Origin: Aquifex aeolicus VF5
GTDB taxonomy: Bacteria > Aquificota > Aquificia > Aquificales > Aquificaceae
Direction: 5' to 3'
Length of the DNA: 64,000 bases
Assembly (NCBI RefSeq): GCF_000008625.1
Contig: NC_000918.1
Coordinates: 596,989-660,988 of the forward strand
Positions 46,725 to 58,642 of this stretch are shown here, one piece after another. The notes below the pieces were generated by a model. It was not told where the DNA came from. It did no database searches and saw only the letters and a list, made by a program, of their open reading frames with translations. The stretch's first letter is position 1. The number at the start of each line of letters is the position of its first letter. The translations under genes were made by a program, and so were the position numbers.

Positions 46725-47333
46725 TCAAAACTTACCCTTTTCCAGCCTTTTTAAGGAGTAGTAATCCCCTATGCCGTACTTAAACCAGAGTTCCTCAAGG
46801 ATTTTTATAAAGATTTCTGCGGTAAGGGTTGCGTCCTTTAAAGCCCTGTGAACTCCGTTCGTCTCAAAACCGAAGTTCTCAGCTATTTCCTTTAAAGAGT
46901 ACTTTTTAAGTCCCGGAAAAACTTTTCTCGCCAACTTCAGCGTGCAGAGAGACGGGTTTCTGAACTTTTTTCCCCTGTACTGTTTTGTGTACTTGTTTAT
47001 GAACTTTATGTCCTGTTCTACGAAGTGTCCAACCACTATGTTATCACCCACGAATTCCAGAAATTCGGGCAGAACTTCTTCTATGGTGGGTTGTCCTACG
47101 AGCATGGCGTTTGTTATGCCCGTTAACTTCTTTATCCTCTCTGGAATGAAGTAACCTGGATAAACCAGAGTTGAGAACTTTTCAGTTATTATCCCTCCTT
47201 CAACGCGTACAGCGGCAAGGTCTATAACTTCAGACTTTTCAACGTCAAACCCGGTAGCCTCCAGGTCTATAACGACGAAAGTGCCATCAAGGAGATTGTC
47301 TCGCATTTTAAGACTTTTGGGAGAGCTCTTCAA
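46725..47333 (-). CDS. DnaQ-like 3'-5' exonuclease (DEDDh, Pol III epsilon family)
   Basis: Exo I motif FVVIDLEATG, a later Exo III-like H...D, and a length of 202 aa. Confidence 0.75.
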   Translation of the reverse strand: MKSSPKSLKMRDNLLDGTFVVIDLEATGFDVEKSEVIDLAAVRVEGGIITEKFSTLVYPGYFIPERIKKLTGITNAMLVGQPTIEEVLPEFLEFVGDNIVVGHFVEQDIKFINKYTKQYRGKKFRNPSLCTLKLARKVFPGLKKYSLKEIAENFGFETNGVHRALKDATLTAEIFIKILEELWFKYGIGDYYSLKRLEKGKF

Positions 47334-50749: not shown

Positions 50750-52047
50750 TGGGAATGACTATAACCGAGAAGATTCTGGCGGAACACGCTGGTAAGAAGG
50801 AAGTCCACCCCGGAGAACTCATAACTGCAAAGATAGACCTCGCAATGGCAAACGATGTGACCGCACCCCTTGCCATAAAGATACTTGAGAAGTACGGAAT
50901 AGATAAGGTCTTTGACCCTGAGAGGATAGCCCTTGTTCTCTCACACTTCGTTCCCGCAAAGGACATAAAGTCCGCTGAGCAGGCAAAGATAGTAAGAGAA
51001 TTCGTAAAAAAGCACGGTATAAAGTGGTTCTTTGAAGAGGGAGAAGGTATAGAACACGCCATACTCCCCGAGCAAGGACTCGTCGTTCCCGGGGACCTCG
51101 TTGTAGGTGCGGACTCCCACACCTGCACTTACGGAGCTCTCGGAGCCTTTGCAACGGGGGTCGGTTCCACCGATATAGCCTACGCTATGGCTACCGGAGA
51201 AGTTTGGCTCAGAGTTCCCGAAAGTATGAAGTTCATCTTCTACGGAAAACTAAAACCATGGGTGATGGGAAAGGACCTAATCCTCTACACGATAGGGCAA
51301 ATAGGGGTTGACGGAGCACTCTACAGGGCTATGGAATTTGACGGAGAGACCATAAGAAACCTTTCTATGGAACAGAGGTTTACTATAGCAAACATGGCGA
51401 TAGAAGCGGGTGGAAAGAGCGGAATAATCTCTCCTGATGAAAAAACGATAGAATACGTAAAACAAAGGGCAAAGAGACCATGGAAAGTTTACCAGAGCGA
51501 CCCTGACGCTGAGTACCACTCCGTTTACGAGTGGGACGCTTCTCAGATAGAACCCTTAGTAGCGTGGCCCTACCTACCTTCAAACGTGCATCCCGTTTCT
51601 GAATCCACCCATATAACGATAGACCAGGCATTTATAGGCTCCTGCACAAACGGAAGAATAGAGGACCTGAGAGTTGCAGCAAAGGTGTTTGAAGCTGCGC
51701 TAAAGCAAGGAAAGAAAGTTCACCCTTACGTGAGGTGCATAGTAATTCCCGCGTCCAAGGCTATATACAAGCAAGCTTTGAAAGAAGGACTCATAGATAT
51801 CTTTATGGAAGCCGGTTGCGTGGTTTCTACTTCTACGTGCGGTCCCTGCCTTGGTGGACACATGGGAGTGCTTGCGGAAGGTGAAAGGTGTATATCCACA
51901 TCTAACAGAAACTTCCCCGGAAGGATGGGTCATCCTAAGAGCGAAAGCTACCTCGCAAACCCTGCCGTGGTCGCTGCGAGTGCAATAATGGGAAGAATTG
52001 CCCACCCCGACGAGGTGGTGAAAGCCGAAACCCTTGCGGGTGTTTAA
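50749..52047 (+). CDS. leuC: 3-isopropylmalate/homoaconitate dehydratase large subunit (aconitase family)
   Basis: [15 protein letters not shown]..., GSCTNGR, and Cys ligands in STCGPC. Confidence 0.9.
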   Translation: MGMTITEKILAEHAGKKEVHPGELITAKIDLAMANDVTAPLAIKILEKYGIDKVFDPERIALVLSHFVPAKDIKSAEQAKIVREFVKKHGIKWFFEEGEGIEHAILPEQGLVVPGDLVVGADSHTCTYGALGAFATGVGSTDIAYAMATGEVWLRVPESMKFIFYGKLKPWVMGKDLILYTIGQIGVDGALYRAMEFDGETIRNLSMEQRFTIANMAIEAGGKSGIISPDEKTIEYVKQRAKRPWKVYQSDPDAEYHSVYEWDASQIEPLVAWPYLPSNVHPVSESTHITIDQAFIGSCTNGRIEDLRVAAKVFEAALKQGKKVHPYVRCIVIPASKAIYKQALKEGLIDIFMEAGCVVSTSTCGPCLGGHMGVLAEGERCISTSNRNFPGRMGHPKSESYLANPAVVAASAIMGRIAHPDEVVKAETLAGV

Positions 52048-52061
52048 TTCTTCTTTTCTTT

Positions 52062-52806
52062 ATGCCCGTAAAGTTAAAGGTTTACTTAAAACCTGAGAAA
52101 CCTATAAAATCAAGCCTTCTCACACCTGAGGCGGTTCACGGTCTCTTTTTTAACCTCCTTTCGGAAGAATTCGCAGAAGAACTCCACAGACCTTCAAAGG
52201 TAAAGCCCTTTTTCCCTGTGGTTTCCTCAATTTTACGAAGAGGAAAAGGAACTTGATAAGTTCTATCTGGAAGTCTTATTTCTGCAAGAAAGTTTAATGC
52301 CCAAATTTTTATCTTCCTTTTTACTTGAAAATAAAGAAATCCGTTTAAACGGTGTAAAACTGAAAAAAGTTTTAAGCCCGAAAGTGAGCGAGGAGAGTAT
52401 TAAATCTTACGAAACCCTTTTTAATTAGGCAGGAGAGGAAAACACCGTGGTTATGGACTTCATATCACCGACGACGTTTAAAAAGGGCGATTTTGACCAT
52501 CCCCTTCCTGAACAGAAGTTCGTTTTTAAAAGCCTGATAAGAAAGTAGGTGAGGTTTTCCGATTTTCCCCTTGATGCAGATTTAAGGGAATTTATTGAGA
52601 AAAATATTTTCGTGTCTGGCGTATGGACAAAGACGAGGAAAGTTGAAACGGGACAAAATGCAAAACTCGTAGGCTTCACGGGAAGGGTAGTTTACTACGT
52701 GTGGATAAACGCCCTCTCTTCCTTTTCTGAGTTTGCCGGCGTAGGCAGAAAAACCACAATGGGTTTCGGAAAAACAAGAAAAGTTCCCCTCAAAAATTTA
52801 GAATGA
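52062..52806 (+). pseudogene. cas6: cas6 (CRISPR repeat endoribonuclease) pseudogene with one +1 frameshift near 52240 and two in-frame TAG codons (~52423 and ~52546)
   Basis: The N-terminal piece reads MPVKLKVYLKPEKPIKSSLLTPEAVHGLFFNLL... The middle piece, in the next frame, reads EEKELDKFYLEVLFLQE...IRLNGVKLKKV. After a TAG comes DFISPTTFKKGDFDHPLPEQKFVFKSLIRK, then another TAG, and the tail contains FAGVGRKTTMGFGKT, the Cas6 glycine-rich loop GhGxxxxxGhG. Confidence 0.7.
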
Positions 52807-52843
52807 TGTATAATAAATTTACAGCCTTGCTGAGGGCTTTTTA

Positions 52844-53082
52844 GCTCCTTGGCAATTGAATAGGGTTTATGGGTCTTGATAAGTGATGCTTTGATGATGT
52901 GATGAAATGAAATCATGATGTGATATGATTGAAGTGATTGAAAATCAAGGGTAAAAATTTTATAAAGGCATACTCAATTTTGCAGAACCTCGGGTTAGCG
53001 GAAATTAACATTCGTTTCATTAAGGTCAGAAGTCTAATAAGTTATTTATAAAGCGTTTTTTTAGACACAGGCGTGCAGGGTT
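52844..53082 (+). repeat. 239-bp CRISPR-leader-like element, copy 1 (no CRISPR repeats follow)
   Basis: It is 238/239 identical to 56868-57106 and lies directly downstream of the cas6 pseudogene. Confidence 0.9.
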
Positions 53083-53093
53083 ACGCCCTAATA

Positions 53094-53150
53094 ATGAGGG
53101 ATTGCGACTATAATAATGTGGCTCTCTGCAATGATAACAAAAAGCGTTGA
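53094..53150 (+). pseudogene. truncated copy (18 codons) of the small ORF that follows leader copy 2
   Basis: Both copies share the block GCCCTAATAATGAGGGATTG(C/T)GA. The product MRDCDYNNVALCNDNKKR* compares with MRDCDSITFRIDECP... at 57254. Confidence 0.4.
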
Positions 53151-53232
53151 AATGCCCTAAGTAAATAAGAGGTTTTTCTTTCTCATTTCATAAACTTAAT
53201 AAATAAACACTCACTTATAATTAATATTTCCT

Positions 53233-53556
53233 ATGGCTAAGATAAAGCACCTTGAGGAAAAGTTCGGGGAAAAGCCTGTAAGTGAGCTCGTTTATGAAGA
53301 TGAGAACGCAAAAGTAATCAGGTTTTACCTTAAGAAGGGACAGGAGATAAAGCCTCACACATCCCCTTCCAGCGTTTACATTACAGTTTTAAAAGGGAAA
53401 GTAACTTTCACAGCGGGAGAGGAAAAAATCAAAGGGGAGCAAGGTTCTACGATTTACTACGAGCCTAATGAACTCCACGGATTTGTGGCAGAAGAGGATA
53501 GCGTTCTGGAAGCTGTCATAACTCCAAAACCCGTGAGGAAAGTAAGCCTCAAATAA
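53233..53556 (+). CDS. cupin-domain protein (107 aa)
   Basis: Has the cupin beta-barrel pattern (G.E...H........Y...G...F, with NELHGF). No SD sequence precedes the ATG. Confidence 0.65.
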   Translation: MAKIKHLEEKFGEKPVSELVYEDENAKVIRFYLKKGQEIKPHTSPSSVYITVLKGKVTFTAGEEKIKGEQGSTIYYEPNELHGFVAEEDSVLEAVITPKPVRKVSLK

Positions 53557-53628
53557 GAAATTCTTATATCCTTATAATGATAAGTAAGTGTTGATTTACT
53601 TTGATAAAGGTCATAATATTAATATCAA

Positions 53629-54114
53629 ATGGGGAAGCAGGAGAAGGACTTAGGAACTGCTTGGGAGTATCAGGGTTGTCTTATTCCGAAAGATCTTTAT
53701 TACGACATAGAAAATCAGGTCTGGGTAAGAGTAAACGAAGACGGAACGGTAACGCTCGGGCTCACGGACGTGGGACAGACCCGTGCCGGTAGACTACTCC
53801 ATATAAGGGTAAAACCCGTAGGGACGAAAGTAAAGAAGGGAAAACCAGTTGCGACACTTGAAAGCGGGAAGTGGGCCGGACCCGTTCCCGCACTCGTGGA
53901 GGGCGAAATCGTTGAAGTAAACCCGAAAGTCGTGGAAGACCCGAACTACATAAACATTGACCCTTACGGAGATGCGTGGATCGTAAAGATTAAACCCACA
54001 AGCGAAGAAACGCTCAAGAGAGACCTCTCCGAACTTGCTCACGGTGAAAAAGCTCACGAAGAAATGAAAAAGCATATAGACGAGTGGGATATAGTTTGTA
54101 TGAGGTGTGTGTGA
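53629..54114 (+). CDS. glycine cleavage H-protein-like lipoyl-domain protein with a C-terminal CxxC
   Basis: LESGKWAGPVPALVEGEIVEVNPKVVEDPNYINIDPYGDAWIVKIKP aligns with the GcvH lipoyl-lysine region (ESVKAAS...SDPYG.GW). The protein ends CMRCV. Confidence 0.65.
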   Translation: MGKQEKDLGTAWEYQGCLIPKDLYYDIENQVWVRVNEDGTVTLGLTDVGQTRAGRLLHIRVKPVGTKVKKGKPVATLESGKWAGPVPALVEGEIVEVNPKVVEDPNYINIDPYGDAWIVKIKPTSEETLKRDLSELAHGEKAHEEMKKHIDEWDIVCMRCV

Positions 54115-54377
54115 TGGGTGCGAAGGATAAACACGTTATTCTTCTGGTTTCTCAATGGTGTCCTACATGTCCTCATGCGGATGCCCTCTGGAAAAAACTT
54201 CAGGAAGAATACGGCTTTAAGTATGAAGTTCTGGACATAGGTACTCCGGAGGGCAGGTACTGGGTCACAAAGCTAATGGTAAGGAGTGTTCCTTCCACGG
54301 TTATAGACGGTAAGCTTGCATTCGTGGGGGTGCCAAACGAAGCGGAAGCACGCAAAGCAATAGAGGAGGGGGTTTAA
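54114..54377 (+). CDS. thioredoxin/glutaredoxin-like small protein (CPTC active site)
   Basis: MGAKDKHVILLVSQWCPTCPHA. Its ATG shares one nucleotide with the TGA of the preceding gene. Confidence 0.6.
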   Translation: MGAKDKHVILLVSQWCPTCPHADALWKKLQEEYGFKYEVLDIGTPEGRYWVTKLMVRSVPSTVIDGKLAFVGVPNEAEARKAIEEGV

Positions 54378-54404
54378 CTTTATACCTTTTTATAATCTTT
54401 AAGT

Positions 54405-55262
54405 ATGTACTTTCAAGACATCATAATGACCCTTCACAAGTTCTGGGCTGAAAAGGGATGTTTAATCTGGCAACCCTACGACGTTGAAGTCGGTGCAGGG
54501 ACAATGAACCCTGCCACTTTCCTGAAAGTTCTTGGTAAAAAGCCGTGGAACGTCGCATACGTTGAACCCTCAAGAAGGCCTCAGGACGGAAGGTACGGAG
54601 AAAACCCCAACAGACTCCAGCACTACTACCAGTTTCAGGTAATTTTAAAGCCCGCACCCCGAAATCCTCAGGAGATTTACCTTGAAAGCCTTGAAAGACT
54701 AGGCATAAATCCCCTGGAACACGACATAAGGTTCGTGGAAGACGACTGGGAATCTCCTACCTTGGGAGCATGGGGACTCGGCTGGGAGGTCTGGCTTGAC
54801 GGAATGGAAATAACCCAGTTCACCTACTTCCAGCAGGCGGGAGGACTTGACCTTGACGAGATATCCGTTGAGATCACTTACGGACTGGAAAGGATAGCGA
54901 TGTACATACAGGATAAAGACAGCGTTTTTGACATAGAGTGGAAAGAGGGAATAACCTACGGCGAGATATTCAAGCGTTCGGAGTGGGAGTGGAGCAAGTA
55001 CAACTTTGAACTTGCAGACACGGATATGCTCTTTCAGGTTTACGAAATGTTTGAAAAGGAATCAAAAAGGATGGTTGAAGAAGGGCTTATATTCCCCGCT
55101 TATGACTACCTCCTGAAGTGTTCCCACGTGTTTAACATACTGGACGCAAGAGGAGCTATTTCCGTTCAGGAGAGGGCGAGGTACATAAGGAGGATGAACA
55201 ACCTTGCAAGGGAAATAGCAAAGCTCTATCTTCAAGTCTTTGAAAATGTTGGAGCAACTTGA
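54405..55262 (+). CDS. glyQ: glycyl-tRNA synthetase alpha subunit
   Basis: [36 protein letters not shown] is highly characteristic of GlyQ. Confidence 0.95.
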
Positions 55263-55905
55263 AAAAAAACTCGGCTACACCTTTAAGGATAAATCTCTAC
55301 TCGAAAAAGCCTTAACCCACGTATCTTACTCAAAAAAAGAACACTACGAAACTCTTGAGTTCCTCGGCGATGCCCTCGTGAATTTTTTTATAGTTGACCT
55401 TCTGGTTCAGTATTCCCCCAACAAAAGGGAAGGCTTTTTATCTCCCTTGAAAGCTTACCTCATAAGTGAAGAGTTTTTTAATTTACTCGCTCAAAAACTG
55501 GAACTTCATAAATTCATAAGAATAAAGAGAGGAAAGATAAACGAAACAATTATAGGAGACGTATTTGAAGCTCTTTGGGCAGCGGTTTACATAGATTCGG
55601 GAAGGGACGCAAACTTCACACGGGAACTTTTTTACAAACTTTTTAAAGAAGATATACTGAGTGCTATAAAAGAGGGAAGAGTAAAAAAAGATTACAAAAC
55701 GATACTTCAGGAGATCACTCAAAAACGATGGAAGGAAAGACCGGAATACAGACTCATAAGTGTTGAAGGTCCTCACCATAAAAAGAAGTTCATAGTGGAA
55801 GCAAAAATAAAAGAGTACCGAACACTCGGCGAAGGAAAGAGCAAAAAGGAAGCTGAACAAAGGGCAGCCGAGGAATTAATTAAATTACTGGAGGAATCAG
55901 AATGA
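55240..55905 (+). CDS. rnc: ribonuclease III
   Basis: 221 aa with the RNase III signature ETLEFLGDA and a C-terminal dsRBD. Confidence 0.95.
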
Positions 55906-56831
55906 AAAAAGGAGTAATACTTATAAACCTCGGCGGACCTGATTCTCTGGAAGCGGTAGAGCCGTTCCTTTATAACCTTTTCTCAGATCCAGATATTTTC
56001 TCCTTACCCTTTCAAAAAGTTCTCGCAAAAATAATCGCAAAGTTAAGGGCTAAAAAAACGAGACATTACTACGAGCTTATGGGAGGAAAGTCTCCCCAAT
56101 ACGAACAAACCCTTGAACAGGCTAAAGCACTTCAGGAAAGACTAGGAGAAGATTACAAGGTAGTTGTGGGAATGAGATACTGGAAACCTTACATAAAAGA
56201 CGCACTTTCTGAACTCCTGAAGGAAGGAATAAACGAAGTAATACTCCTTCCCCTGTACCCCCAGTACAGCAAAACGACAACTGGTTCCGCTTTTAACGAG
56301 TTTGAAAGGAGCAAAAAAGCCCTCAAAGCGGACCACATTAAAGTTAAGAAAATAGAACACTTTTACGACCACCCCCTCTATATAAAGGCGTGGGCCGAGC
56401 AGATAAAACAGAGCGTTGAAAAGCCCGAAGAATACCATTTTCTCTTTTCCGCCCACAGCCTTCCCAAGAAATTGATAGAAGAAGGAGACCCTTATCAGGA
56501 ACAAACCGAAAAAACGGTAAAACTCATTATGGAAAATTTCCCTGAAGTAGAATACACGCTTGCTTACCAGAGTAAAGTGGGTTTCGGAAAGTGGCTCGAA
56601 CCCTCAACAGACGAAGTAATCAGAAACCTGATTAAGAAAGAAGTTAAAAAGTTATTAGTTATTCCCATATCCTTTGTTTCCGAACACAGCGAAACCCTTT
56701 ACGAACTCGACAAACAATACAGAGAACTTGCCCAAGAACTGGGATACGAAGAATTCGTAAGAGTCCCTACTCTAAGAACAAACCCCTACTTCATATCTGC
56801 ACTTGAAGATTTAGTAAAAAATGAAGTATAG
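55902..56831 (+). CDS. hemH: ferrochelatase
   Basis: [34 protein letters not shown]-terminus and a length of 309 aa. Confidence 0.9.
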   Translation: MKKGVILINLGGPDSLEAVEPFLYNLFSDPDIFSLPFQKVLAKIIAKLRAKKTRHYYELMGGKSPQYEQTLEQAKALQERLGEDYKVVVGMRYWKPYIKDALSELLKEGINEVILLPLYPQYSKTTTGSAFNEFERSKKALKADHIKVKKIEHFYDHPLYIKAWAEQIKQSVEKPEEYHFLFSAHSLPKKLIEEGDPYQEQTEKTVKLIMENFPEVEYTLAYQSKVGFGKWLEPSTDEVIRNLIKKEVKKLLVIPISFVSEHSETLYELDKQYRELAQELGYEEFVRVPTLRTNPYFISALEDLVKNEV

Positions 56832-56867
56832 TAAAATTAAGTAAAGGGCTTTTTTAGCCCTCTCGTG

Positions 56868-57106
56868 GCTCCTTGGCAACTGAATAGGGTTTATGGGTCT
56901 TGATAAGTGATGCTTTGATGATGTGATGAAATGAAATCATGATGTGATATGATTGAAGTGATTGAAAATCAAGGGTAAAAATTTTATAAAGGCATACTCA
57001 ATTTTGCAGAACCTCGGGTTAGCGGAAATTAACATTCGTTTCATTAAGGTCAGAAGTCTAATAAGTTATTTATAAAGCGTTTTTTTAGACACAGGCGTGC
57101 AGGGTT
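56868..57106 (+). repeat. 239-bp CRISPR-leader-like element, copy 2, followed directly by CRISPR repeats
   Basis: It is 238/239 identical to 52844-53082, with a single T/C difference near the 5' end. A hemH terminator-like hairpin (GGGCTttttAGCCC) lies just upstream. Confidence 0.9.
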
Positions 57107-57202
57107 CCTAATGTACCATAGAGGAGTTGAAACGTCGTCTATGAAGTCGTAAGCCTCTTTAAGTTTTTGTTTAGTTCCTAATGTACCGTGCGGAGCTTAA
57201 AC
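57104..57202 (+). CRISPR. degenerate CRISPR mini-array of two repeats (30 and 29 nt) flanking one 40-nt spacer, with a possible further spacer and a degenerate terminal repeat to ~57272
   Basis: R1 is GTTCCTAATGTACCATAGAGGAGTTGAAAC, the spacer is GTCGTCTATGAAGTCGTAAGCCTCTTTAAGTTTTTGTTTA, and R2 is GTTCCTAATGTACCGTGCGGAGCTTAAAC. The repeats share 14 nt at the 5' end plus a GGAG...AAAC tail, like the (A/G)TTGAAAC 5'-handle type processed by Cas6. Confidence 0.6.
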
Positions 57203-57253
57203 TTTTATCATGTATGTACAGGATTATTTGAATCTTGTGGTTATGCCCTAATA

Positions 57254-57550
57254 ATGAGGGATTGTGATTCCATAACATTCCGTATTGACGAATGCCCTGT
57301 TCCCCTCCTGAGCATAAAGAATGCTTACCTGAAAGTTAATGAAATATCTCCCGAAGACTTTGTTGATAGAATTAAGCATTCCGGCTATCTTTCAATGCTA
57401 AGAAAAGGGGAATTAATTAAAACTTTAGAATGTGATTTTAATCTAAATTTAAGAAAAAAGTGCGAGAAAAATCTGGAAAAAGGAGACAAGGCTATATTAA
57501 TAATCCATGAAGAAAAGGAATTAAAGTTTTTCGATATTGAGGTCTTGTAA
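57254..57550 (+). CDS. hypothetical 98-aa protein immediately downstream of the CRISPR remnant, with a truncated paralog at 53094
   Basis: MRDCDSITFRIDECPVPLLSIKNAYLKVNEISPEDFVDRIKHSGYLSMLRKGELIKTLECDF... No family was recognised. The ATG chosen is the one conserved between the two loci. Confidence 0.4.
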   Translation: MRDCDSITFRIDECPVPLLSIKNAYLKVNEISPEDFVDRIKHSGYLSMLRKGELIKTLECDFNLNLRKKCEKNLEKGDKAILIIHEEKELKFFDIEVL

Positions 57551-57553
57551 ACT

Positions 57554-58642
57554 TTACTCCTGAAGCAAGGCCTTGGGGTAAGAACCGAGAACCTTCAGGA
57601 ATTGGGTTTTTTCTTTGAGTTCTTTCAATGCCTTTTCTACTCTCTCTTCTTCCTTGTGTCCTTCTAAATCTACGAAAAAGACGTAATCCCAAGCCTTCTT
57701 CTTTGATGGTCTTGATTCGATCTTGGTTAAGTTAATTCCGTGTTTGTAAAAGACTTCTAAGGCTTTGTAGAGAGCTCCGGGCTCGTCTTTTACACCGAAA
57801 AGTATGCTCGTCTTATCGCTTCCCGTGGGTTTTAAATCCCTCTTCGCTATAACTAAGAACCTCGTGAAGTTGTCTCCCGAATCCTGAATGTTTCTTGCGA
57901 GTATGTTGAGGTGGTAAGTGTAGGCCGCAACTTCCGAGGCTACGGCTCCAGCTCTCTCATCTTCAAGGGCGATTTCACAAGCTTTTGCGGTGCTCTCTAC
58001 TTCTATAACCTGTACACTCGGAAGATTTTTCTCAAGCCAACTCCTGCACTGGGCAAGGGCCATTTTATGGGAATAAACCTTTTCAACGTTTTCTATACTA
58101 TCCGAAGCCGAGAGCAAGTGTAGCGTTATGGGTATCACTATCTCTCCCGCAATCTTTACGTCACTTTCCAGGAACATGTCAAGGGTGTAATTAACTACTC
58201 CCTCTATCGTGTTTTCCACGGGAACTACGCCGTAATCCGCCCTTTTCGTTTCCACTTCCACGAACACGTCCCTTATGGTGGAACATGGTGTGTAGTGAGC
58301 AGAAAATCCGAAAAACTCAAGGGCAGCTTGATGGGTAAATGTAGCCTTTGGACCAAGGTAGGCTACTTTTATTTTCTTTTCTAAGGAAAGACAAGCGGAG
58401 ATAATCTCCCTGTATATGTGAACGAGTGCCTCTTGAGGAAAAACACCGCCGTAAACTTCTTTGTTAAGCCTCAGTATTTTTTCAAAAATTTCCCTTTCCC
58501 TTTCGGGGACGTGTATGGGGAGGTTTGCCTTTGACTTTATTTCCCCTATCCTCTTTGCAAGCTTTGCCCTTTCGTTTAAGAGCCTGAGTATCTCTTCGTC
58601 TATCCTGTCTATCTCTTTTCTGAGTTCCTTTAGCTCTTCCAT
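57554..58642 (-). CDS. pheA: bifunctional chorismate mutase/prephenate dehydratase (P-protein)
   Basis: An N-terminal CM domain (LRKEIDRIDEEILRLLNERAKLA), a PDT domain and a C-terminal ACT domain, 362 aa in total. Confidence 0.9.
   Translation of the reverse strand: MEELKELRKEIDRIDEEILRLLNERAKLAKRIGEIKSKANLPIHVPEREREIFEKILRLNKEVYGGVFPQEALVHIYREIISACLSLEKKIKVAYLGPKATFTHQAALEFFGFSAHYTPCSTIRDVFVEVETKRADYGVVPVENTIEGVVNYTLDMFLESDVKIAGEIVIPITLHLLSASDSIENVEKVYSHKMALAQCRSWLEKNLPSVQVIEVESTAKACEIALEDERAGAVASEVAAYTYHLNILARNIQDSGDNFTRFLVIAKRDLKPTGSDKTSILFGVKDEPGALYKALEVFYKHGINLTKIESRPSKKKAWDYVFFVDLEGHKEEERVEKALKELKEKTQFLKVLGSYPKALLQE

Follow-up and report, generated by a model that had tools for sequence, protein, structure and literature searches.

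The closest described counterparts of the locus considered here are loci of clustered, regularly interspaced and short palindromic repeats (CRISPR) in other Aquificota, in which genes of one Cas6 clade stand in a type III-A (Csm) arrangement. Starting from cas10, these loci usually run through csm2, three RAMP genes and csx1 to cas6; beyond cas6 lie a convergent block of a conserved 232-residue gene with cas2-cas1-cas2, then a leader, and then an array of 35-nucleotide (nt) repeats that terminate in GGGATTGCGAC (for example GTTGAAATGCCCTAAGGAAGTGAAGGGATTGCGAC in locus L014 and CTTGAAGGTTATCCCTAAAAATGAGGGATTGCGAC in locus L017). Thermus thermophilus Cas6A and Cas6B act on 36-nt repeats in which a 3' hairpin is followed by a AUUGCGAC tag, and these two proteins from strain HB8 (PDB 4C8Y/4C8Z and 4C98/4C9D) are the best solved-structure matches to a profile of the clade, at E 2e-29 and 9e-25. 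Aquifex aeolicus carries five CRISPR loci of 4-5 repeats each, according to Lechner et al. 2014, and a literature search for its type III systems gave nothing useful. Here we describe a 64,000-nt stretch of the A. aeolicus VF5 chromosome (NC_000918.1, positions 596,989 to 660,988; hereafter the window, whose own numbering is used throughout) that contains a cas6 pseudogene (52062-52806), a leader and a fragmentary array, all on the + strand, as are the second leader with its repeats, the housekeeping block and the 98-codon ORF described below. We consider this region, at a probability of roughly 75%, to be what is left, without function, of a type III-A-style CRISPR module, an ordinary relic without an immune role.

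The pseudogene comprises four open reading frame (ORF) fragments, one in frame 0 (52062-52256) and three in frame +1 (52297-52428, 52447-52548 and 52549-52806), the latter divided by TAG codons at 52426-52428 and 52546-52548. Stitched together, they give a translation of 247 amino acids, to which alone all profile scores refer. Pfam PF10040 (CRISPR_Cas6) matches this translation with 63.6 bits (3e-17; cut-off 25), several PADLOC Cas6 models match it over the full length at 1e-25 to 4e-23, and TIGR01877 reaches 56.2 bits, slightly below its cut-off of 58.65. A search of 5.8 billion proteins returned 66 homologues, the best of them intact, 253-254 residues long and 64-65% identical; the best match among genome contigs is 68% identical, and tblastn against the Cas6 of locus L009 gives 63-72%. 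Fourteen intact homologues align end to end with the stitched translation at 36-66% identity, and intact Cas6 proteins from Aquificota share 65-68% of residues with it. An earlier note on this DNA had proposed a split cas6-like gene here, and that assignment stands: the pieces do not match unrelated proteins, as a single profile and the pairwise alignments span them all, and both peptides quoted in its favour, FAGVGRKTTMGFGKT and DFISPTTFKKGD...LPEQKFVF, are present in the translation.

Codon-level DNA alignment with three close homologues (L009, L006 and L036), together with protein homologues, places four lesions in the gene. The first is a single surplus base in the CCCTTTTT homopolymer tract at 52206-52213, a 1-nt insertion relative to all three, across which the homologues read KPFSLWF; the earlier note had recognised this +1 frameshift and had located it near 52240. 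It had also seen both in-frame TAG codons. That at 52426-52428 occupies a variable codon (GGA or AGT in homologues), and that at 52546-52548 stands in place of a nearly invariant tryptophan (TGG in homologues). The fourth lesion, which had been overlooked, is a 27-nt in-frame deletion with its junction at 52700/52701; it removes nine conserved residues (DCEDKKILK in homologue P0001) right before the helix that precedes the glycine-rich loop. Between the frameshift, the two TAG codons and the deletion, no uninterrupted reading frame remains for the whole two-domain Cas6 fold. As read from its sequence, the window cas6 is a dead member of its family, a pseudogene rather than a working Cas6, and because of these lesions RNA cleavage activity would not be expected of it. 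The C-terminal glycine-rich loop GVGRKTTMGFG is still encoded, and H26 and H42, both invariant alignment columns, are kept; this retention suggests that the decay is fairly recent. With T. thermophilus Cas6A and Cas6B it shares its fold family, PF10040, and a glycine-rich loop at the C terminus, whereas the window copy differs in being a pseudogene with four lesions and in its low sequence identity to the Thermus proteins.

A sequencing or assembly artefact was ruled out as the source of the lesions by Logan assemblies of five sequencing runs, which are the same as the window over the covered parts of the pseudogene, save two single-nucleotide polymorphisms (SNPs) in one strain, and which also agree with it over the two repeats and the housekeeping genes described below. 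Strain ERR15087784 differs from the window by 7 SNPs over ~16 kb, and 2 of these fall within the 745-nt pseudogene; both are nonsynonymous, which lends weak support to relaxed constraint. As a separate observation, Logan contigs of SRR22575694 and SRR22575695 stop at 52302, within the pseudogene and ~255 nt beyond leuC, and other contigs of these runs begin at 53614/53629, at the start of gcvH; 55419-55466 is also among the sites concerned. These contig ends would mark transcript ends if the runs are RNA sequencing (RNA-seq).

Downstream of the pseudogene, the 239-bp element that had been called leader-like proves real: 52844-53082 is 238/239 identical to 56868-57106, the sole mismatch being T at 52856 and C at 56880. 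In strain ERR15087784 the second copy also has T at the 56880 site (L076), which leaves no mismatch between its copies and speaks for concerted evolution; the difference in the window suggests either gene conversion between the copies or a very recent mutation. The body of the first leader (52844-53079) is non-coding, has a G+C content of 0.34 vs 0.443 for the window, and adjoins the first repeat at 53080 in the same orientation. The second leader (56843-57103) consists of a hairpin (56843-56863), an exact boxA (12/12; 56867-56878) and the leader body.

Since leader identities of 44-49% are uninformative on their own for A+T-rich DNA, motifs, their order and the leader length were used to assign the element to a type. 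Firstly, its order of elements (hairpin, boxA-TGAATAGG, GATG repeats, CGGAAATTAAC) is common to the leaders of loci L050, L054, L055, L057, L058 and L060, whose arrays are built from the 29-nt repeat GTTCCTAATGTACCGTGTGGAGTTGAAAG. Secondly, the distance from boxA to the first repeat is about 237 nt in the window leader, vs 223-243 nt in leaders of 29-nt arrays. Finally, among 79 fetched loci, the motifs GATGCTTTGATGA and CSGAAATTAAC occur only in the window leader and in leaders of 29-nt arrays. Leaders of the 35-nt family (L017, L032, L047 and L063) are shorter and have other motifs. By these features the 239-nt element reads as a real CRISPR leader of the type that serves 29-nt repeats. The leader has no match among PLSDB plasmids. 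A GATG/TGATG run (GTGATGCTTTGATGATGTGATGAAATGAAATCATGATGTGATATGATTGAAGTGATTG) at 52880-52935 and 56904-56959 is partly kept in L058, L059 and L060 and is absent from ribosomal RNA (rRNA) leaders; it could represent a protein-binding array particular to this leader family.

Several features bear on possible transcription from the first leader. A candidate -10 box, TGTATAAT (52807-52814), was read from the sequence adjoining the cas6 stop codon, 8 nt upstream of a GC-rich, boxB-like hairpin (52823-52838), and TGTATAAT or TATAAT stands 7-10 nt upstream of the hairpin in the homologous leaders L058, L054, L055, L057 and L050, which suggests a transcription start just before the hairpin. No -35 box accompanies it, as a consensus scan found no -35/-10 pair there. 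Equivalent hairpins of other sequence lie just 5' of boxA in 25 distinct Aquificota rRNA and CRISPR leaders, with a mean folding energy of -10.2 kcal/mol vs -4.8 for shuffles of these sequences; the window hairpin might also be read as a terminator of cas6. The boxA of the first leader, AGCTCCTTGGCA (52843-52854), agrees at 11/12 positions with the A. aeolicus rrn BoxA GGCUCCUUGGCA, the 12-mer of the NusB-NusE-BoxA crystal structure (PMC3177189), and in both leader copies boxA is a predicted NusB/NusE antitermination element. A boxA upstream of A. aeolicus CRISPR arrays is reported by Stringer et al. 2020 (PMC7665894). Both copies here carry GGCTCCTTGGCA, at 12/12 and 11/12; the copy at 52843, which may or may not be one of the five in that study, heads no array that a standard CRISPR finder would call. 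A sigma-54 promoter or an integration host factor (IHF) site, each considered for the GGCTCCTTGGCAA motif, was dropped on the ground that the motif is the exact published BoxA 12-mer.

The boxA motif was also used to scan metagenomes, which gave 30 loci. Aquificota rRNA operons and CRISPR leaders share more than the 12-nt boxA, namely a variable GC-rich hairpin followed by GGCTCCTTGGCAAyTGAATAGG. This module occurs in L041 (59-), L043 (8084-, 9970-), L053, L061, L038, L051 and L062, and in the window at 52823-52865 and 56843-56889. Conservation of the additional TGAATAGG extends to sites upstream of both 16S and 23S genes and to the leaders of at least three repeat families.

What follows the leader belongs to a different repeat family. 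The earlier note had seen here merely a possible degenerate terminal repeat, and this does not hold, for two repeats of the 35-nt family and a 37-nt spacer remain. The first repeat, which we call R_a (GTTACGCCCTAATAATGAGGGATTGCGAC, 53080-53108), comprises the 3'-terminal 29 nt of a repeat of the 35-nt family; with the L017 repeat it agrees at 22/23 positions and with repeats of that family in other Aquificota at 26-27/29, vs 19/29 for the 29-nt consensus. Folding shows its CCCU/AGGG hairpin and AUUGCGAC tag to be intact, a layout that resembles the substrates of T. thermophilus Cas6A and Cas6B. The pattern CCCTAA-N5-12-GGGATTG occurs in the window only at the two leader-linked sites, vs 0.04 expected by chance. 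The single spacer (53109-53145, 37 nt) has the length of the spacers in the 35-nt-family arrays of L014 and L017. The second repeat, R_b (GTTGAAATGCCCTAAGTAAATAAGAGGTTTTTCTT, 53146-53180), is a terminal 35-nt-family repeat; its first 16 nt equal the L014 repeat exactly, it matches L014 and L006 at 26/35 overall, and its 3' end is decayed in the manner typical of terminal repeats. R_a and R_b are different sub-variants of one family, and the 3' half of R_b is lost. At this locus (locus 1) there is no 29-nt-family repeat, an array with three or more copies was not found, and Rfam, run over 52000-57600, matched neither CRISPR-DR nor any further family when E values of up to 5 were allowed. Judged by these comparisons, locus 1 is the predicted remnant, with two repeats and one spacer, of the array family that goes with the dead cas6. 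Because a leader of the 29-nt-repeat type here adjoins 35-nt-family repeats, the locus is chimeric; leader and R_a meet at GGTT. Accordingly, the idea of a CRISPR-Cas locus late in decay fits the dead cas6 beside a leader and the near-complete loss of the array, but not a collapse of the array to nothing.

The second leader heads a mini-array of its own (57104-57268; locus 2 as a whole spans 57104-57300), defined by repeat comparison and consisting of R1 (57104-57133), R2 (57174-57202) and R_a' (57240-57268), separated by spacers of 40 and 37 nt. R1 and R2 match the 29-nt consensus at 26/30 and 25/29 positions and are decayed members of the 29-nt family, and R_a' matches R_a at 27/29. A weak R_b' remnant, TTGACGAATGCCCT (57285-57298), has just its 5' part recognisable. 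This arrangement bears on whether 53080-53108 could after all be the degenerate terminal repeat of a collapsed 29-nt array. Its length of 29 nt and its GTT start exactly at the leader junction suit such a repeat, and at locus 2 its counterpart stands in register (66-nt period) as the last repeat of a 29-nt array. We nevertheless regard this as very improbable. The repeat is far closer to the 35-nt family and to L017 than to the 29-nt consensus, a second 35-nt-family repeat follows it at canonical spacing, and in relatives the last repeat of a 29-nt array is an ordinary 29-nt repeat with a decayed 3' end, not an R_a-like element, so the hybrid appears to be particular to this genome.

Between mini-array 2 and pheA lies a 98-codon ORF (57254-57547) with a G+C content of 0.33, whose ATG falls inside the R_a' loop. 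It was considered as a hidden cas gene and rejected, having no Pfam or NCBIfam match; among 1.84 billion representative proteins it found itself and one weak match (E 7.8e-05, 27% identity, in a 1328-aa protein), and it is probably non-coding filler or an ORFan.

Compared with the Aquificota type III-A loci L064, L066, L017, L014 and L006, the window region has a Cas6 whose stitched translation is 45-68% identical to theirs, repeats of the same 35-nt family ending in GGGATTGCGAC, and a leader with hairpin and boxA. It differs from them in three respects. These loci have cas10-csm2-csm3/4/5-csx1 upstream of cas6, and the window does not: no cas10/csm effector genes lie within the 64-kb window, and such genes are present beside the Cas6 homologues in L064 and L066. 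The relatives also have the 232-residue gene and cas2-cas1-cas2 between cas6 and the leader, of which tblastn detects no remnants in the window (cas1, cas2 and the 232-residue gene alike). Lastly, the relatives have shorter leaders of another sequence family, with about 160-200 nt between boxA and the first repeat. PADLOC found no cas families among the 60 other window ORFs and only housekeeping RNase T/DEDDh and helicase-type matches. One of these, an RNase T/DnaQ-like exonuclease gene at 46728-47333 (-), matches the PADLOC model 'CAS-associated DEDDh' at 1.5e-40; it is most likely housekeeping, because it has the same position in a sister genome without the CRISPR insertion (L072).

The loci of relatives show further features of their own. 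The conserved protein of 232-234 residues encoded between cas6 and cas2-cas1-cas2 (L006 1318-2016, L022 340-1038, L064 10679-11377 and L066 10691-11395, all on the - strand) has no Pfam or NCBIfam match, and from its genomic context it may be an uncharacterised adaptation-associated Cas protein. Two different cas2 genes flank cas1 in the adaptation block. In the closest Cas6-bearing relatives, L006 and L009, cas6 has arrays on both sides, a second 35-nt array (L006 1-260; L009 1-95) ending 20-330 nt upstream of cas6 and co-oriented with it.

It is conceivable that the first leader, R_a, the spacer and R_b form a minimal working array from which, with Cas6 supplied in trans, a type III complex receives one CRISPR RNA (crRNA), while nothing but the cas6 copy at this site is redundant and dead. 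The near-identity of its leader to the other copy, with -10 box, hairpin and boxA in place, would fit such an array, as would the hairpin and 8-nt AUUGCGAC tag kept in R_a, the canonical 37-nt length of the spacer, and the absence of SNPs between strains in R_a, spacer and R_b. We nonetheless consider it unlikely. None of the Cas6 matches in the search of 5.8 billion proteins is labelled A. aeolicus, the best being those at 64-65% identity; besides the dead cas6, the 64-kb window has no cas genes; the spacer has no protospacer in 2.9 million viral contigs (IMG/VR), whether searched exactly or with every third base free in each codon phase; and the leader type and the repeat type are mismatched.

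The genomic setting suggests how the two loci came to stand where they are. The earlier note had placed the pseudogene next to leuC in otherwise core DNA, which is half right: 52048-57557 is a 5.5-kb segment that, by gene tables and blastn, is missing between leuC and pheA of sister Aquifex genomes. In three such genomes the order is ftsH, leuC, pheA (convergent), rplT and pheS, with a leuC-pheA gap of 0-30 nt and no cas6 or array at this site. LeuC identity is 96% to Aquifex sp. GCA_054032195 and GCA_054030475, 95% to A. pyrophilus and 93% to a metagenome-assembled genome. Collinearity by blastn with the sister genomes ends at 52047/52063 and restarts at 57558-57575, and since leuC directly adjoins pheA in them, the whole 5.5 kb is lineage-specific. 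The segment holds the cas6 pseudogene, leader 1, R_a and R_b, a cupin gene, gcvH, trx, glyQ, rnc, hemH, leader 2, mini-array 2 and the 98-codon ORFan. The gcvH-trx-glyQ-rnc-hemH block (53553-56711) is collinear with A. pyrophilus DNA at another genomic site, where its neighbours are unrelated genes and neither a boxA nor a CRISPR repeat is close by. Its RNase III (55240-55902) is identical at 221/221 residues to the crystallised A. aeolicus enzyme (PDB 1YYK and others) and also equals a database sequence named Aquifex aeolicus, which identifies the window as DNA of VF5 or of a near-identical strain.

The two direct, near-identical leader copies, 4 kb apart, bracket this block. Leader identity starts at boxA position 2, and each boxA copy has a hairpin of different sequence upstream of it, so a crossover and a gene-conversion tract both fit. 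The simplest reading of the bracketed block, taken from its end state only, would be homologous recombination between leader copies at dispersed sites. Dispersed CRISPR sequences at genome rearrangement boundaries in Thermotogales are reportedly known from work by DeBoy and colleagues in 2006. The likeness is that CRISPR sequences coincide with breakpoints in a hyperthermophilic bacterium; here, however, the 239-nt leader is repeated and not the arrays, a 3-4 kb translocation of housekeeping genes stands in place of a large inversion, and the mechanism is inferred. A stronger version, in which the A. aeolicus leaders (239 nt, 238-239/239 identical) are portable recombination sites that relocated the gcvH-hemH block and whose module might also serve the moved genes, is an idea that we offer tentatively and think more doubtful than probable.

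An orphan leader in this position might instead have been co-opted as a promoter and antitermination element, its boxB-like hairpin and its boxA, recruiting NusB/NusE, serving cupin-gcvH-trx-glyQ-rnc-hemH. All six downstream genes are on the same strand, the hairpin-boxA-TGAATAGG module also heads Aquificota rRNA operons, and the interval from R_b to the cupin gene has no recognisable intrinsic terminator. Such a role seems quite improbable to us all the same. Collinearity with A. pyrophilus starts at 53553, so that ~75 nt of native gcvH upstream sequence came with the block, which may have left gcvH with a promoter of its own; 14 nt upstream of the cupin ATG there is a TATAAT box; and, if SRR22575694/5 are RNA-seq runs, their contigs with starts at 53614 and 53629 would point to a separate transcript.

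In the account that we favour, a decayed relic without immune function, the 29-nt units would have been lost from locus 1, or never have been there, through recombination or slippage at the GGTT shared at the leader-repeat junction. The housekeeping block would have moved into the CRISPR locus by homologous recombination between dispersed, homogenised leader copies; one example of a route would be a leader-flanked circle integrating into the leader of a CRISPR locus at leuC|pheA. Leader 1 is probably still transcribed, and a one-spacer transcript without a cognate Cas6 would have no immune function. Several points weigh against this account. Other parts of the genome may encode a Cas6 that acts in trans, and a Csm or Cmr complex that could use R_a, and a repeat with all Cas6-substrate features beside an intact-looking leader fits retained function as well as it fits gene conversion or a recent decay. 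The recombination history is read from one end state, and genomes with an intermediate form were not found. The excess of SNPs in the cas6 pseudogene comes down to just 2 SNPs, and CTTG just 5' of R_a' could mean a full-length 35-nt repeat, which would shift the register of locus 2.

Much of this locus is of a known kind. A cas6 pseudogene with a shrunken array is textbook decay, the genome was released in 1998, and the literature already describes boxA in leaders of A. aeolicus. There are precedents for cas pseudogenes and for arrays that have shrunk, as there are for leaders with boxA and for rearrangements associated with CRISPR, and the present case is a new, well-resolved example. Only the hybrid array and the leader-bracketed housekeeping block are mildly surprising. 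For annotators, the locus carries the caution that a 'degenerate terminal repeat' can be a genuine repeat of another family. The hybrid array, with the leader of one family and fossil repeats of another, is a trace of recombination between co-resident CRISPR systems, and the leader copies show concerted evolution, with one differing site in this strain and none in another. The essential genes bracketed by leaders offer a testable example of CRISPR-mediated rearrangement in an organism known for dispersed operons. If the leaders do act as portable recombination sites, CRISPR leaders would be one driver of the scrambled gene order of A. aeolicus.

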